Virus record (IMG/VR): IMGVR_UViG_2862465376_000001 | Location: 64,001 to 128,000 of that record | Length of the DNA stretch: 64,000 nt | From: a virus | Lineage: Duplodnaviria > Caudoviricetes | Strand: one strand, 5' to 3' | In this document: positions 17,637 to 62,559 of the stretch, piece after piece | Layout: every line of letters starts with the position of its first letter | Position numbering within the stretch: the stretch's first letter is position 1 | Notes under the pieces: model-generated | The model's database searches: none | What the model was told of the DNA's origin: nothing | What the model saw: only the letters and a program-made list of their open reading frames with translations | Position numbers and translations under genes: made by a program

Positions 17637-18494
17637 GGCTGGCGAGGCCTTTCTATACCGTTCTGAGGTTGGGGCCCAGCCACCGTGAAGGCGATGGTCA
17701 GACCGAACAGGTCGCGTTGCCTGGCGGGGAATCTGAGAGTTCCCCAGAGGATCCGTTTCTTGGCGGAGAGGATCCTCGCTACCGCATCACGCGGTGAGGG
17801 GCGCCACGGAGTTGATGGACTCCAGGCGCCCCTCCGGCGTTTCCAGGACGTTCTTCACAGCAGCCAGCCCCCTTCGGCGGGTTCGGGCGCACGTGGGCCC
17901 GAGGGGAGTTCGTGGTGGTGGTGGACCAGGAGTGGCGGTCTCGGTCCGAAGGCCATTCAACATCATGCGAGGCCGAAACGGGGAGTCGGCACCCGAACGG
18001 ACTGCGGGCGCTGGCCTGCAGCGGCGTGTCGCTCGACCGGGTCTTGTACACCGGGAGCAGTTTTTGGGTAGGCTGGGTCATGCCAGCGACCTCCGGAGAA
18101 GCTGAACTTCGGACTTGGATATGAGGTTGTTGGCCCCACCGACAGAGACCGGCCAAAGTTTCCTGTCGGACGGCCGCCAAGGACCGGGATGGGGATCCCA
18201 GTCCGACCAGGCGGCCGTTGGTGTTTCTGGAGCCAGATGAAGCAGACGCGACCCGGGGGCGGGATACCTACGAAGGTCGCGTAGGTCACCCTAGTACCTC
18301 TGGTGGACCAAACGCACGGAACCGGTGCAGGAGACACGCGCGCGGGATCATCTGACGTCCTGTCGGCCCGGCCGGGAAATCCGCCGGAGCAAAAACGCGA
18401 CACTGCCCCTGGCCCTGTGTAGCGTCGCGACCACCGCCAAGGACCTTCACTGCTCACCGCCAAGAGCAGCATCACCACCCTCAAGGGGCCCTTC
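17637..18494. promoter_or_regulatory. divergent rep/dinG control region with multiple hairpins
   Basis: Hairpins at 17747-17777, 17796-17834, 18171-18217 and 18450-18469; no convincing CDS. Confidence 0.55.
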
Positions 18495-20600
18495 ATGACG
18501 TCCGCGCCGCCTGCGACCTTTCTGTCCCTCCAGGAGCTGTTCGCGAAGAACCTCCCGGGTTACCGCCGCCGCCCGCAGCAGGAACAGCTCGCGCAGGCCA
18601 TCGAGCTGACGTTCAGTCAGGACCTCGAAGAGAACGAGCCCATGCACCTGCTCGCCGAGGCGGGCACCGGCACCGGCAAGAGCTACGCAGCCCTGATCGC
18701 CGCGATCCTGGCCAGCCGCGCGGGAGACGAGCCCAAGCGGTACGTGGTCGCCACGGCGACCAACGCCCTCCTGGCGCAGTACGTCAAGAAGGACCTGCCG
18801 TGGCTGGAGGGCGTTCTGGGGCAGGCGGGCATCGACTTCACCTGGGCCCCGCTCAAGGGTGTCTCCAACTTCGCCTGCCTGGCCAAGCTCGCTGAGCGCC
18901 CGGCGATCGCCAACGTGCAGCAGCTCCTGGACGAGCTGGCCCCGGACAAGGACGGCACCTACCACCACACCGGCGACCGCGACGACGTTCAGACGCCTAT
19001 CGAGCAGCGCACCGAGTGGCACCTGGTCTCCTCGACCAGCGATGAGTGCCCCGGGCGCTCGAAGTGCTCCTTCGGGGAGCAGTGCTTCGCGATGAAGCAC
19101 AAGGACGCCGCCATGGAGGCCGACATCGTCGCGACCAACATGGCCATCCTCCTGACCGACACCAAGATTGCCCGCGAGACCGCCGGAGGGGACCCCGAGG
19201 CCGAACGCCGCCACCCCCTCCTCGGCCCGTACGACGGCCTGATCGTGGACGAGGCCCACGAGCTGGAGGAGCAGGCCACCAGCCACCTCGGCTTCGACAT
19301 CAAGCAGGGCGGCCTGCTCAAGTGGGCCGACCAGGCCGCCTCCTTCCTCGCCATCCACGAGGACGTCGATGAGCAGCGGCAGGGCGAGTCCCTCGCCGTG
19401 CACGAGCGCGTCACCGCCGCCGTCGAGGCCCTCACCCGGCCCATCGCCGACCACCTGGAGCACGACGACACCGGCGCCATCGACGCCGACTTCATCACCT
19501 ACTACGCCGACCTGTTCGTCACCCTCTACGACGCGCTGGAGACCCTCCGCACCCGCGTGAGCAAGCGCAAGATCGCCGACAGCTCCCACGTGGAGAAGGA
19601 GCAGGCGATCAAGGACCGGCTTCTGACCGTCGGGACCAACTTTCTGAAAGGCGTCAAGGCCGTCCTCCTCGCCGACCCGAACGAGATGGTCCGCTGGGCC
19701 GAGATGTACGGCCACGAGCGCATGCGCATCGGCAGGCGCTGGCTGATCAGGGCCGCCCCCATCGACGTCGGCCCCTACCTCCGCGAGGAGCTGTGGAGCC
19801 GCTACCCGGCCGTGCTGATGTCCGCCACCCTCAGCGCGGGCACCGGCCCAGGCCGCTTCGACTACCTCGCGCGCCGCCTCGGCCTGAAGGACACCGCCGC
19901 CACCCTCGACGTCGGCAGTCCCTTCGACTACCCGAAGCAGGCCCTGTTCTTCCACCCCGACTCCTCGGTGCCCGCCCCGGCCGGGAAGACCCGCAGCGAG
20001 TGGGAGACCTGGCTCCACGCCGCCACCCTCGAACTCGTCCGCGCAGCCGGGGGAGGGGCCATGCTCCTCTACACCTCCCGCAAGGCCATGAACGCCGCCC
20101 ACGACACCCTCGGCAGTCTGCTCCGGGCCGACGGCATCAACTCCTTCGTCCAGGGCGGCGACATGAGCGTCAAGGAGATCGCCGACCGCTTCCGCGAGGA
20201 CGAGAACAGCGTCCTGTTCGGCCTCCGGAGCTTCATGACCGGCATGGACTTCCCCGGGAACACGAACCGGCTTGTCGTCGTGGACAAGCTGCCCTTCGCC
20301 GTCCCCACCGACCCGATCCACAAGGCCCGCTCCGAGGCCATCGAGCGCCAGGGCGGCAGTGCCTTCAGCGACCTGGTCGTGCCGTCCATGACCCTGACGC
20401 TCCAGCAGGCGTTCGGCCGCCTCATCCGCAGCACGGAGGACTGGGGTGCCGTCGCGATCATGGACTCCCGCCTCGCCAGCAAGGGGTACGGCCGGAGCAT
20501 CGTCAAGGCCCTCCCGCCCGCCCGCGCGACCACGTCCCTGGCCGACGTCCGGGACTTCTTCTGGCAGCCCGACGGCAGCGGACTGCTTCCGGCGGCGTGA
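18495..20600 (+). CDS. dinG: DinG/YoaA-family ATP-dependent helicase
   Basis: EAGTGTGKS, Fe-S Cys (C..ECPGRSKCSFGEQC), DEAH, MSATL, SPFDY, KLPF, QAFGRLIR. Confidence 0.92.
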   Translation: MTSAPPATFLSLQELFAKNLPGYRRRPQQEQLAQAIELTFSQDLEENEPMHLLAEAGTGTGKSYAALIAAILASRAGDEPKRYVVATATNALLAQYVKKDLPWLEGVLGQAGIDFTWAPLKGVSNFACLAKLAERPAIANVQQLLDELAPDKDGTYHHTGDRDDVQTPIEQRTEWHLVSSTSDECPGRSKCSFGEQCFAMKHKDAAMEADIVATNMAILLTDTKIARETAGGDPEAERRHPLLGPYDGLIVDEAHELEEQATSHLGFDIKQGGLLKWADQAASFLAIHEDVDEQRQGESLAVHERVTAAVEALTRPIADHLEHDDTGAIDADFITYYADLFVTLYDALETLRTRVSKRKIADSSHVEKEQAIKDRLLTVGTNFLKGVKAVLLADPNEMVRWAEMYGHERMRIGRRWLIRAAPIDVGPYLREELWSRYPAVLMSATLSAGTGPGRFDYLARRLGLKDTAATLDVGSPFDYPKQALFFHPDSSVPAPAGKTRSEWETWLHAATLELVRAAGGGAMLLYTSRKAMNAAHDTLGSLLRADGINSFVQGGDMSVKEIADRFREDENSVLFGLRSFMTGMDFPGNTNRLVVVDKLPFAVPTDPIHKARSEAIERQGGSAFSDLVVPSMTLTLQQAFGRLIRSTEDWGAVAIMDSRLASKGYGRSIVKALPPARATTSLADVRDFFWQPDGSGLLPAA

Positions 20601-20608
20601 CGACCCCG

Positions 20609-20638
20609 TTGTCACCTACCCCAAAGTTGGGGTAGGTT
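20609..20638 (+). promoter_or_regulatory. sigma70/HrdB-type promoter with palindromic operator
   Basis: TTGTCA-18nt-TAGGTT; perfect palindrome ACCTACCCCAA-AG-TTGGGGTAGGT at 20614-20637. Confidence 0.6.
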
Positions 20639-20691
20639 GTAACCACGTTCACCGCCAAGAACGACAAACCTCAGAACACAGGAGCACCATC

Positions 20692-21423
20692 GTGGCTACC
20701 GCCAAGACCACCGAGATCGTGCCGACCTTCGACTTCGCCGCCACCGAGGTCGAGCTGAAGGGCGACCCCAACCTCAGCCTCACTGACGTGCTGGCCAAGC
20801 TGGCCACCCTCCCCCCCACGGACCCGAAGAACCGGCCGAAGCCCGCCACCGCCGTCGAGCTGGTCACCGACGGCCTGATGAGCGCGATCCAGGCCATCCC
20901 CAAGGTCTTCGGCCAGATCAAGCCGCGCGGTCGCCGCCAGCTGACCAAGGCCGAACTGGTCAGCCTGAGGGACGAGAAGATCGAGATCGACACGGCCATC
21001 AAGGCGCTGACCAAGCGCAAGGACGAGATCCACAAGATGGTCTCGGTCCACTTCGACGTCCTCGCCGACAAGCAGAAGCGCGTCACGGAGCAGACGCGGC
21101 TGGACAAGAACGGCCACTACCTCCTGGCCTCCCCGGGCAACGCCGAGACCGCGCCGGTCGAGGGCAGTGGCCACTACTTCACCCGCGAGAAGGCCAGCGA
21201 CAAGGCTGTCCTCAACCTGGACAAGCTGCTCGCCCTGTACGAGGCGGGAGAGATCACCCGGGCCGAGCTGCTCGGCTTCACCACGACGACCCGCACCATC
21301 GACGAGACGAAGATCCGCCGTCAGCTCCTGAACAAGAACAAGCGCGAGCGCACCCAGGCGATTCTCGACAAGATCACCGAGATCAAGCCGGGCAACCTGA
21401 GCATCAACCTGCGCGGCAAGTAG
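20692..21423 (+). CDS. hypothetical phage protein
   Basis: GTG with AGGAG RBS, strong codon bias. Confidence 0.7.
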   Translation: MATAKTTEIVPTFDFAATEVELKGDPNLSLTDVLAKLATLPPTDPKNRPKPATAVELVTDGLMSAIQAIPKVFGQIKPRGRRQLTKAELVSLRDEKIEIDTAIKALTKRKDEIHKMVSVHFDVLADKQKRVTEQTRLDKNGHYLLASPGNAETAPVEGSGHYFTREKASDKAVLNLDKLLALYEAGEITRAELLGFTTTTRTIDETKIRRQLLNKNKRERTQAILDKITEIKPGNLSINLRGK

Positions 21424-21499
21424 TACCTCCGGCCAGAACATCACCGACAATACGAACGTCACAGCCTCCGCTCGGTATACCGGGCGGAGCTAGTGGCAT

Positions 21500-22884: not shown

Positions 22885-22893
22885 AGCGATTCC

Positions 22894-22997
22894 TTGCTCT
22901 GACCTGGCACCGACGGTTAGCGTCAAAACGCCTCCCGCCAGAGGCCCTCCCTCCACGGCAGACCGCCATCCGCCGTACCCAGCCACCGCCAGGTTGG
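22894..22997 (+). promoter_or_regulatory. promoter followed by three tandem CCGCCA-loop hairpins
   Basis: TTGCTC-18nt-TAGCGT, then GCCTC-CCGCCA-GAGGC, ACGGCAGA-CCGCCA-TCCGCCGT and CCAGCC-ACCGCCA-GGTTGG. Confidence 0.65.
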
Positions 22998-23005
22998 AGA
23001 CCCCT

Positions 23006-23449
23006 GTGCTCGACTTCTCCGCTGCCGCCTACGGCAAGGCAGCTGTGCAGACCGTGTCTGTTCCCACGGCCGCTCCCGCCCGCGTTCATCCGATGCCCGG
23101 GGCGCCCTACGAGGTCGCCCAGACGCCTCCGGCCCACGTGCGCATCACCATGGCAGCCACCGACCTTCTCGACGCCCCCGCCGACTGGTCCTGGGAGCAG
23201 CTGCGCGACTACGTCATGCGCGCCGTCGCCGAACGCCACGGCCCCCAGCCCCGCCACGAGAGCGCCAAGGTCAACTCGATCTTCAAGTCCTTCGCCAGCC
23301 GTTGGGCCCGCCAGGCCGGGCCCATTGCCCGCTTCGCCTTCGAGCAGCAGGACGGCTTCTGGCGCTCGGCCCCGGTCGACATCCGCCGCTTCACGAAGGG
23401 CAACGACGACTACTTCGCCCGGCCCATCGCGGAGCGCCTCGGTGCCTGA
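23006..23449 (+). CDS. hypothetical protein
   Basis: GTG after GGAG RBS; codon bias. Confidence 0.6.
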   Translation: MLDFSAAAYGKAAVQTVSVPTAAPARVHPMPGAPYEVAQTPPAHVRITMAATDLLDAPADWSWEQLRDYVMRAVAERHGPQPRHESAKVNSIFKSFASRWARQAGPIARFAFEQQDGFWRSAPVDIRRFTKGNDDYFARPIAERLGA

Positions 23450-23771: not shown

Positions 23772-23816
23772 ATCTCTCGCCCGGCCGCCACCGGGCCCTC
23801 ATCAAGGACCGCCACC

Positions 23817-24677
23817 TTGAAGCGACCCCCGCCCCCTCCGTCCTGCCACCCGCTGGCCGACGCCGACTTCCGGCGCCTCAAGGCCACCAGGCCCCGCCTG
23901 TGGACCGACCCCAAGAAGTCGTGCCTGACCTGCCTGAAGCGGGAAGGGCTGCAGGACTCGCAGACCTACCTCTGGTACGCCGACAACGCCACCGGCCGCC
24001 GCACCGATGAGATCGTCACCTACGAGTGCAACTGCCAGCAGCAGTGGCTCATGCACCTCTGGTTCCTCAACGCGGGCATCCCGCTGAACTACCAGCGCCT
24101 CGGCTGGGACGACGTCAAGTCCGTCCCCCAGCCCGTCGTCGACCAGGTCATGGGCTACGCCCTCCAGGCCGTCCGGAACATCGCCCTCGGGCGCAACCTC
24201 GTCCTGTGGTCCAAGAGCCCCGGCACCGGCAAGACGCTCCTGCTCGCCCTGCTCTCGAAGTTCCTCATGGCTAACGGCTTCCAGGTCCACTTCTCCCAGT
24301 TCAACGAGGTGATCGACCTCTTCACCTCCAGCTGGCGCGACAAGGACGAGCGCGAGCAGTGGACCCGCCGCGTACGCAACGTGGACGTCCTCGCCATCGA
24401 CGACTGGGGCAAGGAGAACAAGGGCCGCATCGAGATGGTTGAGTCCATGGTCGACCAGATCGTCCGCTCCCGCGTTGCCGACGCCGCCCCCACGATCTTC
24501 ACCACCAACCTCACCCCCGACGAGATCCAGCAGGGGTACGGCGTCTACGCGATGAGCCTGCTCACCGAGGCCGCCGACTTCATCGAGGTCACCGGCGCCG
24601 ACTTCCGGCCCGCACGACGCGAACTCTCACGCCAGGAAGCCGACCTCGGCCTGGCCCGACCCATCACGGCGGTATGA
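23817..24677 (+). CDS. DnaC/IstB-like AAA+ helicase loader
   Basis: Zn site CLTC...CNC, PGTGKT, VDVLAIDDWGKE, IFTTN, GADFR. Confidence 0.88.
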   Translation: MKRPPPPPSCHPLADADFRRLKATRPRLWTDPKKSCLTCLKREGLQDSQTYLWYADNATGRRTDEIVTYECNCQQQWLMHLWFLNAGIPLNYQRLGWDDVKSVPQPVVDQVMGYALQAVRNIALGRNLVLWSKSPGTGKTLLLALLSKFLMANGFQVHFSQFNEVIDLFTSSWRDKDEREQWTRRVRNVDVLAIDDWGKENKGRIEMVESMVDQIVRSRVADAAPTIFTTNLTPDEIQQGYGVYAMSLLTEAADFIEVTGADFRPARRELSRQEADLGLARPITAV

Positions 24678-28815: not shown

Positions 28816-29213
28816 GCCACGAGACCGTCCCGATTGCCTGGACCTCCAACGTCAGCAACATTCTGCGCTGGCTCTACAGCCACAAGGCCAACTGGGAGCC
28901 GATGGCCCTCACCGACCCTCCCTACCGCTGGGGGATCGTCCAGCGCGGCCAGGAGCGCTTCGCCATGCAGCCCGAGGACACCCTGTGCTGGGACGGCAAT
29001 CGTGTCTGGCTGCACTCCTCTCACCGTCAAGAGGTAGAGACCTGCGAAGCCAAGGAGGCACGTATGCTCAAGAAGTTCGGCACCGGAACGATCACTGAAG
29101 CCACGGGCGGCACCGAGGAAGGGCTGACATCCCGCATCGGGAGCGCGCTCACCCCCGAGGAGTGGGCGTCCGTGCTCATCGAGGCCGAGGAGACGGACAG
29201 CGAGGAGGAGTAG
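28812..29213 (+). CDS. hypothetical protein (possible nested start at 29064)
   Basis: ATGA overlap with primase; internal AAGGAGG RBS plus ATG at 29064. Confidence 0.5.
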   Translation: MSHETVPIAWTSNVSNILRWLYSHKANWEPMALTDPPYRWGIVQRGQERFAMQPEDTLCWDGNRVWLHSSHRQEVETCEAKEARMLKKFGTGTITEATGGTEEGLTSRIGSALTPEEWASVLIEAEETDSEEE

Positions 29214-30993: not shown

Positions 30994-31074
30994 CCGGTCC
31001 GCCCCGGGTGGCCGTCAGATACGGCCCCCAGTCGCTCCGCCAAGCGGCTGGATTGTTCGCCCGGGGCGGCCCGG
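30994..31074 (+). promoter_or_regulatory. three-way-junction leader of dnaE with CCGCCA loop
   Basis: Outer stem CCGCCCCGGG/CCCGGGGCGG; inner hairpins GGCCGT-CAGAT-ACGGCC and CAGTCGCT-CCGCCA-AGCGGCTG. Confidence 0.55.
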
Positions 31075-36940: not shown

Positions 36941-37008
36941 GCTCAATTCAGCCAACCGCCATTGGCCAACAGCTGACCGCCACAGCTGCCACTCCTACCG
37001 CCAAGGAG
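36937..37008 (+). promoter_or_regulatory. -10-like TAAGCT followed by three tandem CCGCCA-loop hairpins, the last covering the RBS
   Basis: GCCAA-CCGCCA-TTGGC, CAGCTG-ACCGCCA-CAGCTG, CTCCT-ACCGCCA-AGGAG. Confidence 0.65.
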
Positions 37009-37014
37009 CCCTAC

Positions 37015-37221
37015 ATGCCCGACCCATCAGTACCCTCCCCCGACGTTGCTGCCGCCGACGTGGCTCAGCTCCAGCGCGCCGCCGACGCCGAACTCATCGA
37101 CGGCTACCGGCAGGCGGTGCGATTCCTCGCCAGGGTCGAAGAGGTCAGCAACATCAACGTCAACGACGCCTACGACGGCCTCGCCAGCGCATTCGCGCGG
37201 GCCATCACCGCCATCGGCTGA
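37015..37221 (+). CDS. small hypothetical protein
   Basis: AAGGAG RBS. Confidence 0.55.
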   Translation: MPDPSVPSPDVAAADVAQLQRAADAELIDGYRQAVRFLARVEEVSNINVNDAYDGLASAFARAITAIG

Positions 37222-37251
37222 CCAGCCTCTCCTCCCGCCAAGGAGCCCCGC

Positions 37252-42894: not shown

Positions 42895-43039
42895 TCCTGT
42901 CCCGCCCCAAAGTTCCTGCCACGAAAAGTTGGAGTTGCAGGAGGGACCACACCTATGCTGACAGAAATCCCAGGTGCACTGCCGCCACATGAGCACCAGG
43001 TAAGGCGCGACCGCCACGCGTCAGCAAAGGAACCCGCCT

Positions 43040-43426
43040 GTGACAATTCCCGTACGCCTGCTCCGGGAACTGTTCCGGAACCTCCAGGCATGGAACGCCC
43101 TCTACGAGATCGAGGGCAAGGACACCATAACTGGCCCGGACCGGTCCGAGTACTGCATCCACGACATCGTCCACCTCTACCTGACAGCCGTGAACGGACG
43201 CGGCGCCAACGGAAAGCACCTGCTTTCCCCGCGCCAGCGCGAAGCAATCCAGCTGTTCCTTATCGAGAACAGGCCCGAGCGGGAAGTTGCCCGCATCATG
43301 GGCGTCTCCGAGGACAACCCCGTCGCCTCCTACGCCACCCAGGGCCTGGTCCGGCTCAACCAGCTCATCGAGACCGGCGTCATCCCCGGCGTCGGCGACC
43401 GCGAGGACGAGGCGGTGGCCGCATGA
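43040..43426 (+). CDS. sigma-70 region-4-like HTH protein (candidate late activator)
   Basis: LSPRQREAIQLFLIENRPEREVARIMGVS...ATQGLVRL. Confidence 0.72.
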   Translation: MTIPVRLLRELFRNLQAWNALYEIEGKDTITGPDRSEYCIHDIVHLYLTAVNGRGANGKHLLSPRQREAIQLFLIENRPEREVARIMGVSEDNPVASYATQGLVRLNQLIETGVIPGVGDREDEAVAA

Positions 43427-43716
43427 GCAACCGCGTACGCCACGGCGTCGACCCCGAGCTGGAAGCCCAGGCCGACGCCCTCCTGCGTCAGTCCTTCCTC
43501 GACCAGCCCGACCCCGAGGCCAAGTCGCTGATCCTCACGCAGTACAAGCTGCAGAACCGGCTCAAGCGCGAGGTCTTCGTCCCCGGCGGCACCCCCGACG
43601 GCGCCGTCCGCAAGGGCAGCTTCCACCGCAGCATCAACCGCCGCTACCCGCACCTCAACGCCACCGAGGGCGCCGCCCGGCCCCAGCACCGCATCCCCCT
43701 GAAGGCCGACGAGTGA
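43423..43716 (+). CDS. hypothetical protein
   Basis: Coupled ORF. Confidence 0.55.
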   Translation: MSNRVRHGVDPELEAQADALLRQSFLDQPDPEAKSLILTQYKLQNRLKREVFVPGGTPDGAVRKGSFHRSINRRYPHLNATEGAARPQHRIPLKADE

Positions 43717-44363
43717 GCGACAACCTCCCCGCCCTCGCCGACCCGGACAGCGACGGCCCCACCAGCATGGTCCTGGTCAAGATCGGCGACCGCACGGTCC
43801 CCGCCAAGACCGGCCCCCGCTGCCGCGTCTGCCAGTCCCCCCACCGGGCCAAGATCGACTCCTGGATCATCGAGGGCTACACCCGGCCGACCATCCTCGA
43901 ATGGCTCGCAGACATGGAGGAAGGCCCCGCAGGCCACCCCTCCGAGAAGGCACTGCGCGGCCACACCGACCGCCACCTGCCCCTGGAAGTCCGCGCCCAG
44001 ACCGCCATCCTCGACCGCCGCGCCGGACAACTCGGCGAGGAGATCGAAAAATATGGCGGCCGTGTCGCCGACCACCTCTCCGCCCTCGATATGGTCGTAC
44101 TGCAGGGCTTCGACGGCATCCAGAAGGGCACCATCAAGGTCGACGCCGCGACCCTGATGAAAGCCATCGACCTCAAGCACAAAATCGACACCACCGTCAG
44201 CGGGGGAGTGGACGCCAACGTCTGGCGAGACGCCCTCATGGAATACATGCGAATCGCCATCGGATTCATCCCGGTCGACCGCCGGAAAGACTTCGCAGCA
44301 GCCCTCGACGCAAGCCCCGTTCTCGCCGCCCTCTCGAAGAACGCACAGCAGAACAACATTTAA
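43713..44363 (+). CDS. Zn-binding HTH protein, possible terminase small subunit
   Basis: CRVCQSPHRAKIDSWIIEG...H..RH; the TerS role is an inference. Confidence 0.45.
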   Translation: MSDNLPALADPDSDGPTSMVLVKIGDRTVPAKTGPRCRVCQSPHRAKIDSWIIEGYTRPTILEWLADMEEGPAGHPSEKALRGHTDRHLPLEVRAQTAILDRRAGQLGEEIEKYGGRVADHLSALDMVVLQGFDGIQKGTIKVDAATLMKAIDLKHKIDTTVSGGVDANVWRDALMEYMRIAIGFIPVDRRKDFAAALDASPVLAALSKNAQQNNI

Positions 44364-44425
44364 ATTCTTCCGGACCGCCAGCCGGGGACCACCACTCCTT
44401 ACCGCCAGAGGAGAACACCGCCACC

Positions 44426-45415
44426 ATGCACCTGCGCGAACTGCCCACCAGGACCCTCGCCGACGTCGCCGTCGCCTGGAAGCACCACGACCGCGAATGG
44501 ACCTCCGACGCCTGCGTCCCCCGCGCCGACTACGCGCGCGCCCCGCAGCAGGAACCCATCCTGATCCTCGGCGACCACGAGATCACCCTGGACGAGCAGG
44601 CCAGTGCCCGGCTGTGCGCCTTCTACCAGATCCCCACCGCGTACTTCCGCCGGATCACCCCGGCCGAGCAGCACTTCGTGATGAACGCCCGTATGGACCA
44701 CGCCGAGGGCGAGATCACGATCACCTACAACGACCTCGGCATCACCGACGTCCGCAAACCCACCAAGCCGCGCGTCGAGGCCGACGAGTTCGTCCGCATC
44801 GCCCACCGCATCCTCCCGGCCAGCGCCACCGTCCTCGACGCCTGGGTCACCGCCGACGAACTCCGCCTGGACGTCATCAACCACGACGTCGAGGACGGCA
44901 TCAGGGGCGGTCTGCGCTTCGGCCAGAACCGCAAGCAGAACCTGGCGCCGACCGTGGCACCGCTCCTCTTCCACGAGGACACCACCACGGTCATCGAGAT
45001 CCCCGACCCCTCCCTGAAGATCGACGCACGCGGCATCTCCGTCGACAAGATCGCCGAGCGCCTCGCGGCCGAAGCCCTCCGCGCCGCCGCCCGCCTCCAC
45101 TCCGACGCCCAGCACCTGCTCCGCCTGGCCAACATCTCCATCGCCGGAGACCGCATCACCCGCCTGCACCGCGTCGCCGCCGAGCACGGCCTGCCCGTCC
45201 GGCCCCTCTCCGACATCACCATCGCCCTCTCCCGCAGCGACGAGCCCACCATGCTCGACCTCGCCCTCGCGATCGGCAACGCGGCCAACAGCCCCAAGCT
45301 CACCCTCGACTCCACCAAGCGCGCCGTCCGCATCAGGCTCCAGACCACCGCCGGAGCCCTCGTCGTGGACGAGGCCGAACGCTGCGCCTCCTGCCACGCC
45401 CTCGTCGCCGCCTGA
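44426..45415 (+). CDS. hypothetical protein (DUF932-like architecture possible)
   Basis: GAGGAG RBS, codon bias; family call tentative. Confidence 0.55.
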   Translation: MHLRELPTRTLADVAVAWKHHDREWTSDACVPRADYARAPQQEPILILGDHEITLDEQASARLCAFYQIPTAYFRRITPAEQHFVMNARMDHAEGEITITYNDLGITDVRKPTKPRVEADEFVRIAHRILPASATVLDAWVTADELRLDVINHDVEDGIRGGLRFGQNRKQNLAPTVAPLLFHEDTTTVIEIPDPSLKIDARGISVDKIAERLAAEALRAAARLHSDAQHLLRLANISIAGDRITRLHRVAAEHGLPVRPLSDITIALSRSDEPTMLDLALAIGNAANSPKLTLDSTKRAVRIRLQTTAGALVVDEAERCASCHALVAA

Positions 45416-45433
45416 CCGTCACAGGAGAACGCC

Positions 45434-46072
45434 ATGCCCGACTCCAGCCTCGACTTCGAGAGCCTCCAGCGCCTGAGCCAGCGCGGGGACAGTCTCCGTC
45501 AGCGCTCCGGAGACCAGCCCCTGCCCGCCGAGGGCCAGGAGAACGTCCAGGACAAGCTCATCGACCTGATCAAGGAACGCCGCGACCTCGGCGTCCAGCG
45601 CTACGGTCGCCCGCTGCAGACCTTCAACGGCCGCAACGCCGTCCGGGACGCCCTCGAAGAGGCCCTCGACCTCTCCACCTACCTCATGCAGGTCGAGATG
45701 GAGAAGAAGGCCACCCAGGCCTGCATCCGAGAGGCCCTCCACCTCCATCGCGCGAACGAGATCGGCGTGTGCGTCACCTGCAGGTGCTACTCGCCCTGCT
45801 TCACCCGGCGCATCCTCACCAGCGTCACCCCGCCCGCCACCGAGCCGGACATCACCGTCACCACCGTGCATCCGGTCGAGGAGATCGCGGTCCACCCCGA
45901 CTCCGTGGACATCCTCAAGAGCCAGCTGAAGCTGCACGGCGCCGAGGAGCGCCTGGGCGCGCCGATCGGTCAGATGTTCGGTTACCCCATCGTCCACGAC
46001 GACCGGCTCGCGCCCGGCGCCGTCCGCATGCGCCCGCGCGGCTACGACGACCACCCCTCCGCCCGCCCCTGA
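45434..46072 (+). CDS. putative all-alpha NTP pyrophosphohydrolase-like protein
   Basis: ERRDLGVQRYGRPLQTFNGR..DALEEALDLSTYL. Confidence 0.5.
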   Translation: MPDSSLDFESLQRLSQRGDSLRQRSGDQPLPAEGQENVQDKLIDLIKERRDLGVQRYGRPLQTFNGRNAVRDALEEALDLSTYLMQVEMEKKATQACIREALHLHRANEIGVCVTCRCYSPCFTRRILTSVTPPATEPDITVTTVHPVEEIAVHPDSVDILKSQLKLHGAEERLGAPIGQMFGYPIVHDDRLAPGAVRMRPRGYDDHPSARP

Positions 46073-49833: not shown

Positions 49834-49910
49834 CCAGGAAAGGCGTTCTTGCCGAACCCAAAAACGCGTGGCACGATGGCCCTGTCTCGTGGATAGGGCT
49901 GCTGCATGCA

Positions 49911-49990
49911 GCCAGCGGCGTACCTGGGTGACAGACCGCAAGGTCGGCTCAGGCGTGAGGGTCGTTCTTGGCGGGATCACCCCACTTAAA
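49911..49990 (+). ncRNA. candidate structured small RNA with a UUGGCG loop
   Basis: CCTGGG..GACC-GCAA-GGTC..CTCAGG hairpin followed by GTGAGGGTCGTTC-TTGGCG-GGATCACCCCAC hairpin in the terL-50097 intergenic region. Confidence 0.4.
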
Positions 49991-50096
49991 ACGTCCCACG
50001 ATGACCCAGCGGGCCTCCCGGCCAGGATCCACCGGGAGGCCCGCTCATCTGTGTCCACCACCTCACCTCCAGCGCCAAGGACTGGAGGTGCCAGGG

Positions 50097-51494
50097 ATGA
50101 CGGACATCAGCGCGACCAGCTTCTTCCGCCAGGCGGCGGCCGACCCCCCGGGGCTCGACTTCGAGCACGAAGAGGTCGACACCGGTGGCAGTAAACGCCC
50201 TACCAAGATCCACCTGCACGCCGTCGAGCCCGGCACCGGCGACCGCATGGGCACCCTCACCTACCACGTGCCCCGCCGCAAAGCCGACAAGATCCTCATC
50301 GAACACCTTGGCACCGAAGAGGCCCACCAGCGCAAGGGCGTCGGCTCCGCCCTCATGGACGAGATGCAGCGCCGCCACCCCGGCACCCCCATCGATCACG
50401 GCGACCGGACGGACCAGGGAAAGGCGTGGTGGGACAAGTACACCGACGGCAAGAAGGTCACCCGAGGCCGCACCATCGCCTCGGCCACCAAGCCCTGCCC
50501 CTGCTGCGGCGGCACCGGCGAGCACGACACGGGCTTCGAGTGCTTCCACTGCGACGGCGGCCTCACTGTCCCCGCCGACAGCCCCGATGACGCCACCTGT
50601 GACGGCCGCCTGCCCGACGGCGGCCAAGGCAAGACGGCCTTCACCACGCCTGTCCCTGACAACCACGAGCCCTACCAGCACGAGCACGACTGGCTGCCCC
50701 GCGACCACTTCTTCGCACCGGGGGAGAAGGGTCTGGACCCGCGCCTGTTCGACGAGCACGAGCGCATGCACCCGATCGTCCGCCAGCACCTGCTCAGCCT
50801 GCTCAACAGCTTCTGGGCGCCCAAGTACGGCGACTCCTGGCAGTCCTGGGCCCGCGTCTACCTCGCCGGATCCGAGGCCAGCCACTTCTACGGCAACGGC
50901 GACCTCGACATCCTCATCGGCATCGACCACGACGCCCTCAACCACCACGTGGACACCTTCACCGGCGAGCCCCCGGCCGCCGTGGACGAGAAGCTCACCG
51001 ACGAGCTGCGCCACGGCCTCAACGACGAGGCCCGCATGCTCCCCGGCCCGGACGGCAAGGAAACCGGCCCCTGGGAGAATACTTGGTATGTAAACCCGTC
51101 AAGCTATGACATACGGGACATCAAGCCCTACGCCGCCTACGACATCACCCGCGACGAATGGGCCGTGAAACCTGTTGAAGTACCAGACGACTTCAGCCCC
51201 GAAAAGCTCCCCGAGTCCACCTGGGACGTGTTCGAGGCGCTGCAGAAGCTGATCGGCGCTGTCCGGGAACTTCCCGACGGAGTGCGCGAAAGGGAAGGCG
51301 CAGCGTTGTACGATTACCTCCACGCTGACCGCCACAGCGCATTCGGCCCCGAAGGAACGGGCCTCTACGACCCCAGCAACGCCGTCTGGAAAGCCCTCGA
51401 CAAGGCCCCCGACGCACCGTTGCAGCAGCTGATTGACTGGAAGCACGCCCACGACGGCGTGGCCGCCGCCACGGACCAGGAGAAGGCCGCATGA
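50097..51494 (+). CDS. polyvalent protein: GNAT acetyltransferase + Zn finger + pol-beta-type nucleotidyltransferase
   Basis: HQRKGVGSALMDEM (GNAT motif A); CPCCGGTG..CFHCDG; YLAGSEAS..GNGDLDILI (GS..DxD). Confidence 0.75.
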   Translation: MTDISATSFFRQAAADPPGLDFEHEEVDTGGSKRPTKIHLHAVEPGTGDRMGTLTYHVPRRKADKILIEHLGTEEAHQRKGVGSALMDEMQRRHPGTPIDHGDRTDQGKAWWDKYTDGKKVTRGRTIASATKPCPCCGGTGEHDTGFECFHCDGGLTVPADSPDDATCDGRLPDGGQGKTAFTTPVPDNHEPYQHEHDWLPRDHFFAPGEKGLDPRLFDEHERMHPIVRQHLLSLLNSFWAPKYGDSWQSWARVYLAGSEASHFYGNGDLDILIGIDHDALNHHVDTFTGEPPAAVDEKLTDELRHGLNDEARMLPGPDGKETGPWENTWYVNPSSYDIRDIKPYAAYDITRDEWAVKPVEVPDDFSPEKLPESTWDVFEALQKLIGAVRELPDGVREREGAALYDYLHADRHSAFGPEGTGLYDPSNAVWKALDKAPDAPLQQLIDWKHAHDGVAAATDQEKAA

Positions 51495-56424: not shown

Positions 56425-56754
56425 TCAGGCAGAGTCGCCGATCCGCTCCACGTCGCCTGTCGCCGCCAGGCTCAGCTCCACGTCGTTGTCGAAGAGCACC
56501 CGGTACGGGAACGGGGACACGTACCGGCGCACGAGCGTGATGCGCCCCGGCGCCCCGGCGGGCACGTCGTAGGGGACCCGGCAGTCCTCACCCTCCTGTT
56601 CCAGGTCCTCGTCAATGTACGAGCCGCGTAGCCGCCGCACCGCCTGCACCCGGTCACCCTCCCTCAGCGTGAGCGAGCCGACGTGCACGCGCCGGGCCAC
56701 CTCCAGCTTCTCCTCGAAGGTCAGGGTGTCGAGCTTGGCGTCGAGGGTGCTCAT
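56425..56754 (-). CDS. small hypothetical protein
   Basis: ATGA coupling to the 57107 gene, GGAG RBS. Confidence 0.55.
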   Translation of the reverse strand: MSTLDAKLDTLTFEEKLEVARRVHVGSLTLREGDRVQAVRRLRGSYIDEDLEQEGEDCRVPYDVPAGAPGRITLVRRYVSPFPYRVLFDNDVELSLAATGDVERIGDSA

Positions 56755-57107
56755 CGCGGCAGTGCTCCATTCGGTCGGTCGGGGAAGTCGGCGATCGGGC
56801 TGCAGGGGATCGTCCAGGTGTCCGGCCCGGTCCGCGTCCACCCAGCCGTCGCCACGGCGCTGAGCTTGTCGACCGGGTCGTCGAAACGTTGGGGGTCACC
56901 GGCCGACCGATCCGGCATGAACCCCCGCTCGATCAGCCGGTACCCTAGCCCGCCGCCCGGAATGTAGTCCGGGCCGGTGCTGTCCTCAACGACCATCACG
57001 TACTCGTCGTCGATGCCGGTGCCCTCGACGGTCAGCCACCACCGGCCCTTCTTGTCGGCCCGCGCCGTGGCGGTGCGGACATCGGCGGCGGTCTCGGTCT
57101 CGCTCAT
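56751..57107 (-). CDS. small acidic hypothetical protein
   Basis: AGGAGG RBS; divergent from the CRISPR-like cluster. Confidence 0.6.
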   Translation of the reverse strand: MSETETAADVRTATARADKKGRWWLTVEGTGIDDEYVMVVEDSTGPDYIPGGGLGYRLIERGFMPDRSAGDPQRFDDPVDKLSAVATAGWTRTGPDTWTIPCSPIADFPDRPNGALPR

Positions 57108-57140
57108 CGGTTCCTCCTGGCGGGAAGTGAGCCCCCATCA

Positions 57141-57495: not shown

Positions 57496-57522
57496 CCCCG
57501 ACCTCTTCCGGGGCCCTTCTTC
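57490..57522 (+). terminator. intrinsic terminator closing the repeat cluster
   Basis: GAAGGGCCCCG-ACCTCTTC-CGGGGCCCTTC-TTC. Confidence 0.7.
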
Positions 57523-57654
57523 ATGTCCGGCACAGGATCACCACGGCGGCGGCCAGGAGCAGGACGGTGCCCCAGAATCCTCCGATGAGGACCAGGGCGG
57601 CGCGGGCGTAGGGGTGCAGCGGTGTGTGGCGGGTCACGGCGCCCAGTGTGCCCG

Positions 57655-58497: not shown

Positions 58498-58539
58498 GGC
58501 GCACCATCCTGGCATGCGGCTACGACAGGGGGCGCAGCG

Positions 58540-59301
58540 TCAGGTGCTGCTGCTGCGGTCGTTGATGGCTGGGGGACGGAAGTTGTAGCGCTGCGGGTTG
58601 CGGAATTCGTCGTCGAGCCGTTCTACGAGCCATGCTCGGATGATCTGTGTGACCTTCGGGGCCCACGTCAGTTTGCCGTGGGCCAGCAGTTCGTGCCCTA
58701 GGTCCTCGGCCTGCTTCCGCAAGGCGGGGTCCACTCGGATGTTCAGGTTGACCGACTTCGCCCCGTCGCCTCGGGCTGCTCGTACGGGCTGCTTAGGGGT
58801 GAACCGTCCGGCGAGGAACTCCTGCAGCGCCTGGTGTGCCTCGCCGTCAAGGCTGGCTCCGGAGATTACTGCAGCGGCCTTGATGTCGTCCCTCAGTGTT
58901 TCCGGCAGTCTCAGGGGCAGGTTCGGCTTCTTCTGGATCACCCTCTTTTGGTTGAGGCGGCGGGCGAAGTCTTCCCCCTCTTCGGTGAGCATGGAGGCCA
59001 CTGCCTCGGCCATCTGTCGGAGCGAGGCGGGAGCCGGGAATGCAGGGGAGGGCAGGGCTGAGTCGATGGTCGTCATGTCTGCCAGCTTGTGCAGAGTGGC
59101 AGCGGCCTGCTGAATCTGTTCGGCACGTTGCTGGTCGTGGAGATCTTGCCTCTCGTCCTCAGCAAGGTGCCCCTCGCAGGACGGCTGCGTTCCAGCGGGG
59201 TAATAGCACGCGGGTTCCCGACAGAGGACTCCGTCGCTGTAGCGCAGGCACAGCAGCTCGCTGGTGACAGTGGAGTGCATGGACCGCACTCTACTCAGCA
59301 T
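58540..59301 (-). CDS. double ribbon-helix-helix DNA-binding protein (start uncertain)
   Basis: KPNLPLRLPETLRDDIKAAA and SVNLNIRVDPALRKQAE. Confidence 0.55.
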   Translation of the reverse strand: MLSRVRSMHSTVTSELLCLRYSDGVLCREPACYYPAGTQPSCEGHLAEDERQDLHDQQRAEQIQQAAATLHKLADMTTIDSALPSPAFPAPASLRQMAEAVASMLTEEGEDFARRLNQKRVIQKKPNLPLRLPETLRDDIKAAAVISGASLDGEAHQALQEFLAGRFTPKQPVRAARGDGAKSVNLNIRVDPALRKQAEDLGHELLAHGKLTWAPKVTQIIRAWLVERLDDEFRNPQRYNFRPPAINDRSSST

Positions 59302-59303
59302 CG

Positions 59304-59423
59304 ACTTTATACAAAAGCCGGACCCTCACCCCGATGCCGGGTCGGCTGAGGACAGTGCGGAACGTGCGGGGCGACGCCGCGCGTGTGCGGGTAAGAGGGT
59401 GGTGTCCGGCTTTTGTATAAAGT
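59304..59423. repeat. perfect 20-bp inverted repeat flanking 80 bp
   Basis: ACTTTATACAAAAGCCGGAC (59304-59323) / GTCCGGCTTTTGTATAAAGT (59404-59423). Confidence 0.85.
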
Positions 59424-59606
59424 GACCGTATCGAGGGGAAACGCGGGTGCCCCGGGGTGGATCAGGAGGAGAACTCCGGCTGGCGGGCCGGTACGGCGGA
59501 GACCCCGATCCTGCCACGGCCGCCACCACGAACGCCAACACCACGGCGCTGACGACCGGTAGGCTCCCCCGCATGAGGAGCACCGAGCCCGACCCGGGAG
59601 GGAGAC

Positions 59607-60248: not shown

Positions 60249-60407
60249 CACCCGCCACGCCAGCGACCCCGCCGGAAGCGCTGGGGGGGGCGTGCGCTGC
60301 GTCGGCGGGGCCTGGAGGGCGTGTACCCGGCGTGCACGGTCCTACACAGCAGGAAGCCCCGCCCGCGCGCCACGGGGGCGACGCACGGACGGGGCGGTCG
60401 GGCGGTG

Positions 60408-60599
60408 CTACTGGGCGGACCTGCAGGCCGAGCACGGCACGGTGATGGGCTGCCTCGTGGTGAGGTCGACCATCATCACGGAGCCGAGGCCGTGGAGGCA
60501 GGAGCGGCACGGCCGGGTGACGGGACGCTCCTGGCGCAGCTGGTCGTAGGTCTCGACCAGGTCGGCGTACCGGGGGTCGGTCCATGAGGCGAGGGCCAT
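60408..60599 (-). CDS. small Zn-ribbon protein
   Basis: AGGAGG RBS; CRSC..CSAC. Confidence 0.55.
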   Translation of the reverse strand: MALASWTDPRYADLVETYDQLRQERPVTRPCRSCLHGLGSVMMVDLTTRQPITVPCSACRSAQ

Positions 60600-60669
60600 C
60601 GGGTTCCTCCTGGGTGGATGGCACTCACTGTACCGTCGCCCGTACCGTGTGTGAGCGGGTTTGGCGGGA

Positions 60670-61185
60670 TCAGGCAGTGGCGGGGAGGGGCGGGCTGGGG
60701 GTGAAGCCCGGGTTGGTGCAGCTGTTGCACTCCACGTTGCACTCGGTGTGGCAGTCGCCGCCCAGGGGTGCATCGCCGACGCCGCCCCACAGGTCCAGGT
60801 TGGGCTCGTAGCCCATCTCCCTGATGACCCTGATGCTGTCGTCCTGGGTGACGGCCACCGGGCGGCGGGTCTCGGGGCCCTCGGGAACGTGGTGGACGAA
60901 GCGGCCGAGTCCCTGGCACAGCTTGACGTAGATCGTGGTGTGCAGGATGAGGGCGTGCCAGCCCATGTCCACGCGGCGGGAGGGGCGGACCGCCGGGTCG
61001 GCCGGGTGCTTTGCGGCGGCGGCGACGAACTTGAGGGCTTCGTCCACGATGCTCAGGGCGAGGGCCAGGTCGGTGATCTCCGGGTTGTCTCGGATGACGA
61101 GGGAGGCGACGCTGTTGGCCTCGTCGGGGGTGAGCAGGTCCAGGGCGGAGGACTTCGGCTCGGCCTCGGGCTGGGTGACGGTCAC
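60670..61185 (-). CDS. glycine-rich-domain (GRDP)-like protein
   Basis: PS..VD.GWH.LILHT..Y..LC...GRFVHH.P motif; Cys-rich tail. Confidence 0.6.
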   Translation of the reverse strand: MTVTQPEAEPKSSALDLLTPDEANSVASLVIRDNPEITDLALALSIVDEALKFVAAAAKHPADPAVRPSRRVDMGWHALILHTTIYVKLCQGLGRFVHHVPEGPETRRPVAVTQDDSIRVIREMGYEPNLDLWGGVGDAPLGGDCHTECNVECNSCTNPGFTPSPPLPATA

Positions 61186-61402
61186 GGATTCCCCTTCGGT
61201 CGTGGAGCATGGCGGCACGCGGTGATCGTGGGATCACTGCGTGTGCTCTGACGTGATGAAGGTATGACACATTCTCAGATCGAGAAAAGACCCCCGGGAT
61301 GGTTGGCATATGCCCGGCCGCCGGACGGCGCGTGTTTCGGCCAGGGTGCGGCCGCTGTCGGCGGGGGCGTCCGGGGCGCCAGGGGGTAGAGAGGAGTCCG
61401 CC

Positions 61403-61651
61403 ATGCCGCCACGTGCCAAGAAGTCCCCCGCCCGCACCCAGATCCGCCTCCCCGTCTTCCCGGAGCGGACCTGCCGCGACCAGGTCTCCGGGGAGTTCGC
61501 CATCCACTCCTGCGAGGTCGTCGAGGGGCACCGGGGCCCGCACGCCTCGCAGTCCGTGGCGACGTCGATGACGGCCCGCCTCGCGTGGGAGAACCGCAAC
61601 CCGGACCAGCTGGAGCCGGTGGCCGACGACCCGTTCGTGAGCGGCTGGTGA
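61403..61651 (+). CDS. hypothetical protein
   Basis: GAGGAG RBS; C..C..H.GPH. Confidence 0.5.
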   Translation: MPPRAKKSPARTQIRLPVFPERTCRDQVSGEFAIHSCEVVEGHRGPHASQSVATSMTARLAWENRNPDQLEPVADDPFVSGW

Positions 61652-61845
61652 CCGCCCCAGGGGCCTTCCCGGCGCCCCCGGCCCAGGACCCGGCCGCCGC
61701 CCTCCACGACGACACCGTGGCGGCCCTGCAGCGCCTGCACAACCACCTCGCCGTCCACCGGCCCCGGGCGCTGGCTTCCTTCAACGGCGCGGCCGTCGAC
61801 CTCGCCATCCACCTGATGCAGCAGATGACGCCCGAGCGCCCGTGA
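61648..61845 (+). CDS. small hypothetical protein
   Basis: GTGA coupling. Confidence 0.4.
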   Translation: MTAPGAFPAPPAQDPAAALHDDTVAALQRLHNHLAVHRPRALASFNGAAVDLAIHLMQQMTPERP

Positions 61846-61851
61846 ACGACA

Positions 61852-61886
61852 AGGCCCCCTCTCCAGGCACAAACGGAGAGGGGGCC
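61852..61886. terminator. bidirectional terminator
   Basis: AGGCCCC(C)TCTCC...GGAGAGGGGCCT between convergent genes. Confidence 0.55.
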
Positions 61887-61902
61887 TCGCTGGCGGGTAC
61901 GG

Positions 61903-62502
61903 TCAGTCGTCGAAGATCGCGCCGGTCTCCTCGGCCTTCATCTGCCGCAGCTCCTCGCGAATCGCCTTCAGCAGCGGGGGTACCACCGGCCGGACCGGAA
62001 CACCCGTCTCCCGGGCCTCCGCGCGGGCGGCCTCCACGGCCGCGTGCTCCTCGCGCATCAGCACCCGCATCATCGCCCGCATCGTCTTCTGGAAGATCCG
62101 CAGGTCCGGGTTGCGCACCCTGAACATCTGCCAGTGCGCGTCGAGCGCATAGTCGACCACGAGCGGCTTCTGCTTGTCCGCCGCGTACACGCCCTCCGGG
62201 AGCAGCAGGTCGCCCGGCGGCACCATGAAGTTCAACTCCTCGGCCTCCGGCTCCGGCTTGTGACGTCGTGCACGCGCGCTGCCGTGCTGCTCCCGCCGGT
62301 GCCGCTCCATGGCCTGCGGCTGGGGAGACGTAGTCACCACCCCCTCCCGGGCGCAGTCAGGACAGTGCAGTTCCTCCGGCTCGGGCTCCGGCACGGCCGC
62401 CAGGACGGGCTGTACGGGCTTCGGAGCGGCAGGGGCCTGCTCCTTCTGCTGGGCGGCCTTCTCGGCGGCGCGACGGGCCTTGCGGGCTGCACTGCTGGCC
62501 AT
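61903..62502 (-). CDS. hypothetical protein with C2H2-like motif
   Basis: GAGGAG RBS; CPDC...HRREQH. Confidence 0.55.
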   Translation of the reverse strand: MASSAARKARRAAEKAAQQKEQAPAAPKPVQPVLAAVPEPEPEELHCPDCAREGVVTTSPQPQAMERHRREQHGSARARRHKPEPEAEELNFMVPPGDLLLPEGVYAADKQKPLVVDYALDAHWQMFRVRNPDLRIFQKTMRAMMRVLMREEHAAVEAARAEARETGVPVRPVVPPLLKAIREELRQMKAEETGAIFDD

Positions 62503-62559
62503 GAGTGGCGGTCTCCTCGGCGTGTGGTGGGCAGATCACCATTCTAGCGGCTCAGACGT

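Follow-up and report, generated by a model that had tools for sequence, protein, structure and literature searches.

In the kissing-loop antisense systems of plasmids, such as CopA/CopT of R1, Inc RNA/repZ of ColIb-P9 and RNAI/RNAII of ColE1, a structured cis-encoded RNA contacts the leader hairpin loop of a single initiator gene. The YUNR U-turn was described as ubiquitous in the recognition loops of such loop-loop antisense systems (PMC4485353), and the recognition loop of ColIb-P9 Inc RNA was found to contain the rUUGGCG motif. The DNA analysed here comprises positions 64,001 to 128,000 of the IMG/VR virus record IMGVR_UViG_2862465376_000001 (Duplodnaviria; Caudoviricetes), a stretch of 64,000 nucleotides which is called the window. 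It was found to contain a family of short leader hairpins with a fixed CCGCCA loop on different stems, together with a predicted structured RNA in the spacer between the terminase gene terL and the portal gene, whose apical UGGCGG(G) anti-loop is the exact complement of these loops. To the reading that the hairpins and the spacer RNA form a multi-target loop-loop (kissing) antisense regulon, in which one RNA would act on many genes, we give about an even chance.

The likeness to the plasmid systems would include a structured RNA, a G/C-rich loop, a YUNR-type turn and, as the target, the leader hairpin loop of a replication gene in a plasmid-like replicon, with translation control as the likely outcome. 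The target and regulator loops were complementary at six of six positions (CCGCCA/UGGCGG) and the seventh pair tended to follow the lineage. The anti-loop of the window was found to contain the same rUUGGCG hexanucleotide as Inc RNA. Unlike in the plasmid systems, the RNA is trans-encoded (at 49.9 kb, with the targets at 17.7-46 and 57-62.5 kb), the complementarity covers only 6-7 loop bases with differing stems and no extended duplex, and 15-25 targets per element, a replisome and early regulon, stand in place of one initiator gene. The system fails two defining features of the plasmid family, cis-encoding and the single target, and no described family fits it. Literature searches on the motif or the element family found no relevant description.

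The RNAIII and Rsa RNAs of Staphylococcus aureus carry C-rich loop seeds which pair with the Shine-Dalgarno (SD) sequences of many messages, sometimes by loop-loop contact. The apical-loop seed of one RNA contacting many messages near ribosome-binding sites would be common to those regulons and the present one. The SD sequence with which those seeds pair is a generic signal; here the target leaders carry instead a dedicated tag hairpin, which evolved separately, is frequently repeated in tandem and in many cases precedes the SD sequence. The lambda nut sites contain boxA followed by a boxB hairpin with a fixed GNRA-like pentaloop, occur once or twice per genome and are read by an N-type arginine-rich protein, unlike the 6-8-nt loops of other sequence found here at dozens of sites, many of which abut start codons. 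In Cluster K mycobacteriophages the SAS motif is a linear conserved sequence and the ESAS motif contains conserved 17-bp inverted-repeat arms around a variable spacer (PMC3203893). These motifs are likewise repeated in one orientation at the translation starts of a subset of actinobacteriophage genes, with no assigned function, and the CCGCCA hairpins are their mirror image, with variable arms and a conserved loop.

The window was found to contain 165 CCGCCA copies against 86±9 in dinucleotide shuffles. All 4096 hexamers were counted as hairpin loops (stem of at least five pairs, G.U allowed, at most one flanking loop base per side), and in this census, which did not presuppose the motif, CCGCCA came out on top. 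It occurred 26 times, twice as often as the next hexamer (13), and its embedding rate was 15.8% against a background of 3.4%. The intergenic DNA, defined by a gene map trained on codon usage and taken with 12-nt flanks (8013 nt), contained 40 copies against 10.4±3.1 expected, and 15 of them were embedded in hairpins against 0.29±0.53, the maximum in 300 shuffles being 2. The excess consisted essentially of the hairpin-embedded copies, and the non-hairpin intergenic copies occurred in about the chance number. The coding sense strand contained 107 copies, mostly in the frame xCC-GCC-Axx, against 101.7±5.9 after synonymous shuffling, and the coding copies were ruled out as members of the system. 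Their element-wide strand bias is due to codon usage.

A hairpin family of this kind had been claimed in an earlier sequence-only reading of the window, which proposed shuffled controls for it, and both the intergenic and the hairpin-embedded copies stand far above them. The split between sense and antisense and between intergenic and coding copies, which that reading also proposed to count, held for the intergenic sense hairpins and failed for the coding-strand bias. The 22 CCGCCA sites which it listed were found to fold in 21 cases, among them all 16 plus-strand sites and, on the minus strand, 17761, 17933, 57118, 59481 and 62506; the minus-strand copy at 17722 has no enclosing stem. The CCGTCA loops at 29024 and 45416, which it took for variants, did not stand as a class, CCGTCA being at background level, and no one-mismatch loop variant was found to be enriched in hairpins of the window.

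The strict intergenic hairpins numbered 15-24 each in four complete or near-complete sequences of the element family. In more than 90% of them a start codon on the same strand lay no more than 250 nt away, at a median distance of about 20-25 nt, and about a third of the hairpins bury an SD sequence or a start codon, as in the recA leader and the 44.4-kb leader (SD) and in the leader of the DnaC-like gene (TTG). The leaders of early and replication genes in the window contained at least one hairpin in 9 of 15 cases, whereas none of the 13 virion or late leaders did (p=8e-4). A Streptomyces-type TANNNT box was found to end 3-15 nt upstream of the first hairpin in 12 of 39 clusters, against 29 of 2000 random intergenic positions (p=2e-12), which suggests that many hairpins would lie at the extreme 5′ end of transcripts of the host polymerase. 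These 5′ ends are predicted from the −10-like boxes. The description of the hairpins as intergenic, on the sense strand of the downstream gene and hiding its SD sequence or start was confirmed by this placement, and their position just after a −10 box holds statistically.

The strand of the hairpins was found to follow the local gene direction, including the divergent region near 17.7-18.5 kb, and therefore a feature linked to transcription rather than to replication is favoured. This orientation bears on the explanation at the level of DNA, by which the hairpins are recombination cassettes like the PeSLs of phages, or hairpins of single-stranded DNA that serve replication or a phage polymerase. 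The PeSLs of the T4-type phages RB49 and phi1 contain conserved GGGG/CCCC stems, lie mostly within or upstream of the promoter and serve as terminators and recombination sites (PMC2839356). Like the present hairpins, they form repeated cassettes of an early host-type promoter and a stem-loop before many non-virion genes, with possible cassette insertion. A cassette trace of the expected kind was found in the window, where the small open reading frame (ORF) 37015-37221 is bracketed by the near-identical SD-burying hairpins 36992-37008 and 37229-37245. The ORF was present only in the window and in locus L005, and in the other relatives recA directly follows the third hairpin; it has the look of a gene cassette that entered between two copies of the tag. 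The pairing of early promoters with stem-loops in PeSLs, which mediate shuffling, also speaks for this explanation, and the G.U evidence considered below is compatible with it. We nevertheless regard it as highly improbable, with a homology of only 6 nt plus short variable arms, poor for homologous recombination, an orientation that follows local transcription and no replication direction, and an association of the hairpins with SD sequences and start codons. The PeSLs, with their conserved stems within or upstream of the promoter, are the reverse of the CCGCCA hairpins, in which the loop is conserved, the stems vary and the hairpin lies 3′ of the −10-like box, with no U tract or terminator-like call at the sites.

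The closest public relative of the window was found to be pRLB1-9.1, a circular 154-kb plasmid of Streptomyces sp. RLB1-9, to which two thirds of a 20-kb probe aligned at 84% identity. Protein-guided scans detected an element family of about 150-156 kb in Streptomyces genomes and in IMG/VR, with a RecA or TerL identity to the window of 52-98%, and the window belongs to this family of ~150-kb Streptomyces phage-plasmids. The comparison set contained five complete relatives (G001, G002, G004, G005 and G006) together with pRLB1-9.1, G003 and IMG/VR loci. G004 (66-69% identity) and G006 (about 52%) served as outgroups.

More than 20 related Streptomyces elements of ~150 kb were found to share the hairpin system. 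In 14 of 15 family loci (RecA identity 66-98%) CCGCCA ranked first among the hexamers found as sense-strand hairpin loops, and G001, G002 and G005 contained 15, 22 and 26 intergenic embedded copies, respectively, against 1.2-2.1 expected. Across orthologous sites the loop was changed at 8% of positions, the arms at 11-12%, the flanks at 19% and the extra loop bases beside the hexamer at 33%. Among 96 site-by-relative comparisons in which the loop was kept, the hairpin was kept in 88, often with other arms, and the recA leader and the sites 43011, 44375 and 59481 were found to contain stepwise wobble and fully compensatory series. The alignments support the view that the CCGCCA hairpins are conserved, selected leader structures of the sense strand with a fixed loop on freely changing stems. 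The invariant loop on different stems, noted before in the window, is thus borne out in related elements, with the loop as the slowest-changing part and compensatory stems.

The sense-strand intergenic DNA of the window was found to contain only two UGGCGG copies, and the one in the terL-portal spacer was the only such site that was conserved. The RNA predicted around it is about 170 nt long (about 49.88-50.04 kb; spacer fold z=-4.2), and in alignment A3, which contained 14 of its homologues, RNAalifold found 29 pairs, 15 of them with double compensatory changes. The alignment contained a long-range closing helix, inner hairpins and a terminator-like hairpin, with UGGCGGG invariant amid divergent sequence. 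The UGGCGG(G) was conserved in 14 of 14 aligned homologues and in every one of the 20 and more spacers inspected, preceded by the YUNR-type (C/U)UGG (UUGGCGG in the window), and the central bases of the anti-loop had a predicted probability of being unpaired of about 0.9-1.0 in most homologues. The −10 block TGGCACGATG was likewise invariant in 14 of 14, and the promoter-like pair in front of the RNA may serve as its promoter. A U-rich tail after the terminator-like hairpin was found in some relatives (G001) and was weak in the window. The RNA was conserved as a unit in the window, pRLB1-9.1, G001, G002, G003, G005 and the IMG/VR loci L057-L074. In the Rfam scan, also proposed in the sequence-only reading, nothing in the window reached the gathering threshold of any family, and the spacer RNA gave only noise at E<=1. 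A second complementary RNA about 23 kb before the window (about 22.5 kb in G005) was ruled out, its UGGCGG core not being conserved in G001 or G002.

Every hairpin-bearing element inspected was found to carry the spacer RNA, and G004 and G006 were without both. In G004 none of the intergenic CCGCCA copies was embedded, and the spacer between terL and portal measures only about 45 nt. G006 contained embedding at background (6 of 243 CCGCCA copies), and nhmmer found the spacer RNA in all CCGCCA-type elements and no homologue in G004 or in the terL-portal locus L075 of G006. The loss of the whole set in two elements of the same host genus is left unexplained if the hairpins act in cis only, as 5′-terminal stem-loops which stabilise messages and tune ribosome access, with the loop set by host RNase, ribosome, RNA polymerase or hairpin kinetics. 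This explanation would suit the hairpins at predicted 5′ ends just after −10-like boxes, several of which sequester the SD sequence at a modest -5 to -7 kcal/mol. It would also suit the folding energies of the multi-hairpin leaders, which were unremarkable for their GC content, and therefore the signal is the motif in the loop and not stability; unconstrained folding of the recA, 22.9-kb and 23.8-kb leaders gave tandem hairpins with the motif in every apical loop. A structural role, however, needs no invariant six-base loop more conserved than its stems, and the matching RNA would also be unexplained, so that we consider the cis-only explanation improbable.

When U precedes the anti-loop, the base after the target loop was A in 35 of 91 hairpins (38%); when C precedes it, A was found in 11 of 88 (12.5%). 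G002 and G001, a distant and independent pair, differed in the same way (8/24 vs 1/22, p=0.023), and single hairpins in L069 and in L058 are in keeping with this. The co-variation speaks for the kissing reading.

Under the kissing reading, the hairpins would be a common RNA address tag in the leaders of early, replication/recombination and regulatory genes, and the trans-encoded RNA from the terL-portal spacer would be its most likely reader. Its UGGCGG(G), after the U-turn-type (C/U)UGG, would kiss the CCGCCA loops through 6-7 G/C-rich base pairs and dock on 15-25 leaders simultaneously. The stems are not complementary to the RNA, and therefore the complex would stay at the kissing stage without a long duplex. 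It would hold the SD-sequestering hairpins closed or direct nuclease cleavage to the leaders. On balance the replication and early programme would be braked in a dose-dependent manner, which could control copy number or immunity while the element is a plasmid, or shut off the early genes. That both partners are transcribed, that they pair, and in which direction and at which level they act is deduced here from sequence. In a wider form, which we offer tentatively as possible and not as probable, the spacer RNA would be a master riboregulator of the phage-plasmid, the dose of which reports copy number and the kissing of which throttles translation of the replisome and early set. RNA-based copy control and immunity would thereby be extended from one rep gene to a regulon, which genes would join or leave by gain or loss of the tag, as is suggested by the duplicated tag around ORF 37015-37221.

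Should the loops indeed pair, many genes could be wired to one RNA in a compact and evolvable way, by six-base tags on arbitrary stems and a single matching apical loop. The kissing-loop copy control of small plasmids would then extend to a 150-kb phage-plasmid with its own replisome, giving a handle on the choice between plasmid maintenance and lytic growth in Streptomyces, in which RNA-based phage regulation is, to our knowledge, almost unexplored. The tag and anti-tag pair could also become an orthogonal gene-control part for high-GC actinomycetes, and the carrier strain RLB1-9 of pRLB1-9.1 is a cultured isolate, which makes the hypothesis directly testable.

Several points weigh against the kissing reading. 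That hairpins and RNA occur together or are missing together may go back to one evolutionary event and so count as one contrast, and the pooled p of 7e-5 for the seventh position comes from a test which ignores shared ancestry. The A preferred before the target loop could not pair with the G that follows the anti-loop, and wobble-compatible loop variants were not enriched. The interface contains only six base pairs, and a chance match of the invariant hexamer is unlikely, not impossible (about 0.005 by our own estimate, from about seven invariant hexamer windows in A3). In the predicted ensemble, the anti-loop of the window itself was unpaired with a probability of only 0.5-0.7, its last two G being paired. 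The G.U pairs showed no significant strand preference (23 vs 15 between strands, p=0.26) and were dropped as proof of the sense strand, so that the assignment to sense RNA rests on placement and orientation. The promoters were predicted from sequence only, and a scan for E. coli-type promoters and terminators, made with the E. coli consensus, was blank across the window and tells little in DNA of 68% GC.

The need for the exact hexamer, with no tolerance of wobble-compatible variants, fits base-specific contacts and so speaks for a protein reader. By this account an RNA-binding protein or endoribonuclease, encoded by the element or the host, would recognise CCGCCA on any stem and co-regulate the translation or decay of early messages, the spacer UGGCGG being coincidental or a competitor for the protein. 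CsrA reads GGA loops, and RegB and RegA of T4 act on early messages. The hairpins resemble the targets of CsrA/RsmA in their short loop motif on variable stems in many leaders, sometimes over the SD sequence, and differ from them in having CCGCCA in place of GGA and in the existence of a complementary RNA, the reader of the CsrA/RsmA targets being a protein. The tandem arrays with a spacing of about 21-28 nt would suit an oligomeric binder, and 28 proteins, most without known function, were found to be common to G005, G001 and G002 and absent from G004. The Pfam scan of ten candidate proteins in the window, however, found no CsrA-like protein and no RNA-binding or RNase domain among them; the candidates included the FEN-type exonuclease, the SNF2 helicase and the sigma region-4 protein, and the rest were without Pfam hits. 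The position of the motif in the loop is loose, with 0-2 extra bases on either side which are the fastest-changing, and this is unusual for shape-specific binders. The invariant apical complement in a conserved RNA would be left unexplained, and the seventh-position co-variation is not predicted, so that a protein reader appears less likely to us than the kissing RNA, though it is a serious rival. Of the single trans factor proposed in the sequence-only reading, either an antisense RNA or an RNA-binding protein, the former has found a candidate in the spacer RNA and the latter gained no evidence of a CsrA-like kind. The comparison with CopA/CopT and IncI Inc RNA made in that reading appears apt in view of the rUUGGCG and YUNR features of the anti-loop.

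Table 1. Hairpins with CCGCCA or CCGTCA loops and parts of the predicted spacer RNA in the window (positions are those of the window; MFE, minimum free energy fold)
Positions	Strand	Feature	Details
17722..17727	-	CCGCCA copy without convincing hairpin	constrained fold 0.0 kcal/mol; no enclosing stem
17749..17775	-	leader hairpin, loop 17761-17766	leftward rep-like leader; outer 6-bp and inner 3-bp stem; -12.9 kcal/mol, motif apical
17923..17947	-	leader hairpin, loop 17933-17938	upstream in the same leftward rep-like leader; -9.5 kcal/mol
18450..18469	+	leader hairpin of DinG-like helicase gene (start 18495)	6-bp stem, 8-nt loop; -9.2 kcal/mol, z=-5.4
20646..20663	+	hairpin, leader of gene 20692-21423	5-bp stem; 3′ of terminator-like hairpin
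22930..22997	+	three tandem hairpins, loops 22935, 22963, 22986	all three in unconstrained MFE; 22963 stem imperfect
23779..23820	+	two tandem hairpins, loops 23785, 23809	-18.7 kcal/mol, z=-2.2
29017..29034	+	hairpin, CCGTCA in 8-nt loop	loop lost or unpaired in relatives
31028..31051	+	leader hairpin of DnaE (Pol III alpha) gene	9-bp stem; -15.7 kcal/mol
36951..37008	+	three tandem hairpins, loops 36956, 36977, 36998	MFE is exactly three hairpins; 21-nt spacing
37229..37245	+	hairpin burying SD of RecA/UvsX-like gene (ATG 37252)	duplicate of 36992-37008
42973..43022	+	two hairpins, loops 42982 (imperfect stem), 43011	leader of sigma-70 region-4 gene (43040-43426); 3′ of TATGCT -10-like box
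44368..44413	+	two hairpins, loops 44375, 44402	3′ of TTTAAAT box; second buries SD (GAGGAG) of gene 44426-45415
45411..45425	+	4-bp hairpin, CCGTCA loop	overlaps SD of gene 45434-46072
49849..49877	+	promoter-like pair TTGCCG-N17-CACGAT	upstream of spacer RNA
49884..50005	+	anti-loop RNA core (predicted)	closing helix 49884-49891 with 49997-50005; inner hairpins, one at about 49935-49948
49969..49975	+	UGGCGG(G) anti-loop	apex of covarying hairpin at about 49957-49984; exact complement of CCGCCA loops
50011..50042	+	GC-rich terminator-like hairpin closing the spacer RNA	stem covaries
57113..57128	-	weak hairpin, 3′ arm is SD (GGAGG) of leftward gene 56751-57107	-6.1 kcal/mol constrained; not MFE when folded freely
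59476..59491	-	hairpin, 5-bp stem, 6-nt loop	leftward intergenic region 59077-59606
62498..62521	-	hairpin, leftward gene 61903-62502	SD (GAGGAG) in 5′ arm, ATG in 3′ arm; 3′ of TAGAAT box; -6.9 kcal/mol

In the window, which is 68% GC, genes run rightward in one long block between 18 and 56 kb; gene identities were taken from the annotation of pRLB1-9.1 and a Pfam scan. The products include a DinG-type helicase, a DnaC-like ATPase, a DnaB-like helicase, a WhiB protein, a J-domain protein, the DNA polymerase III (Pol III) alpha subunit and a RecA/UvsX-like recombinase. Next come the sigma region-4 protein, the FEN-type exonuclease and the SNF2 helicase, and then the terminase and the portal.

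The DinG-like leader was found to contain a non-hairpin CCGCCA copy at 18434, 3′ of a TAGCGT -10-like box, and in pRLB1-9.1 both flanking loop bases of its hairpin were replaced by an extra A-U pair. The orthologue of 20646..20663 in pRLB1-9.1 retained the loop on an altered stem in which a U.G pair occurs. At 20609-20640, 3′ of the helicase gene, a 9-bp stem forms a perfect hairpin, and a TTGTAAC box lies immediately before the 20652 tag hairpin. This arrangement suggests that one early transcription unit ends here at a terminator and the next starts from a promoter of its own. The 14-nt perfect complementarity of 49961-49974 with 20652-20665, which extends beyond the loop into the 3′ arm of the same tag hairpin, was not conserved in pRLB1-9.1 and was set aside as lineage-specific or due to chance.

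The triplet at 22930..22997 was found directly 3′ of a -35/-10-like pair TTGCTC-N18-TAGCGT, with the last arm overlapping the SD sequence of a GTG start near 23010, and it was conserved in G005, pRLB1-9.1, G001 and G002. The 3′ arm of the second hairpin at 23.8 kb contained the TTG start (23817) of the DnaC-like ATPase gene, and the orthologues in G001 and G002 retained the loop on a shortened stem. The DnaE leader site was less conserved, the loop being lost in several relatives. The triplet at 36951..37008 was found 3′ of a conserved TAAGCT -10-like box, and its third hairpin buries the SD sequence (AGGAG) of the small ORF with ATG at 37015. All three of its stems contained compensatory and wobble changes around a fixed loop in the family alignment A1.

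The product of gene 43040-43426 was found to contain the Pfam domain Sigma70_r4_2, and across relatives the site 43011 in its leader contained a series from G.U through A-U to a fully compensatory pair. The site 44375 occurred among relatives in nine different stem versions, every one of them paired. The orthologous site of 45411..45425 was CCGCCA in six relatives, and the CCGTCA hairpin there is, by this alignment, a decayed copy of a CCGCCA hairpin, whereas the membership of 29017..29034 is doubtful. In G005, one pair of 59476..59491 was flipped from C-G to G-C with the loop kept, and the loop of 62498..62521 was lost.

In G004 (loci L025-L032; e.g. 75976, 81715 and 83920) 46 intergenic CTGCCA copies were found against 18 expected. 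Most of them were contained in a longer non-hairpin leader motif, with the sense sequence CCTGTCA-N8-CTGCCAAG, about 17 nt upstream of start codons, and the true sense-strand CUGCCA-loop hairpins numbered 6 against 0.87 expected. G004 as a carrier of a variant CUGCCA loop was thus only partly upheld, most of the excess being non-hairpin and no complementary RNA being found there. The CCTTGT loops of G006 look like antisense coding sequence and were ruled out. The spacer RNAs of the pRLB type (L060-L066 and L071) contained a second G-rich block, UGGCAG, in another helix region (A3 columns about 129-135), where other lineages contained UAGCGG or CGGCGG; no CUGCCA hairpins were found alongside the block in those pRLB-type elements.

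The portal leader (50044-50099) was found to contain an SD-burying hairpin of its own, with arms at 50066-50072 and 50082-50088. Upstream of this hairpin, a bipartite GTGTC-N21-AAGGRCTGGAGG was conserved in relatives, with the downstream half overlapping the SD sequence; it resembles a late promoter and could equally be a translation-start motif. An 86-nt tRNA-Ile was called by ARAGORN at 43728-43813 on the minus strand, opposite to the well-scoring coding gene 43713-44363, and is likely to be a false positive. A long AT-rich inverted repeat was found at about 59300-59430 within the intergenic region 59077-59606 (530 nt), in surroundings of 68% GC. Its arms of about 22 nt lie about 80 nt apart, and it may be an operator or an origin-like site.

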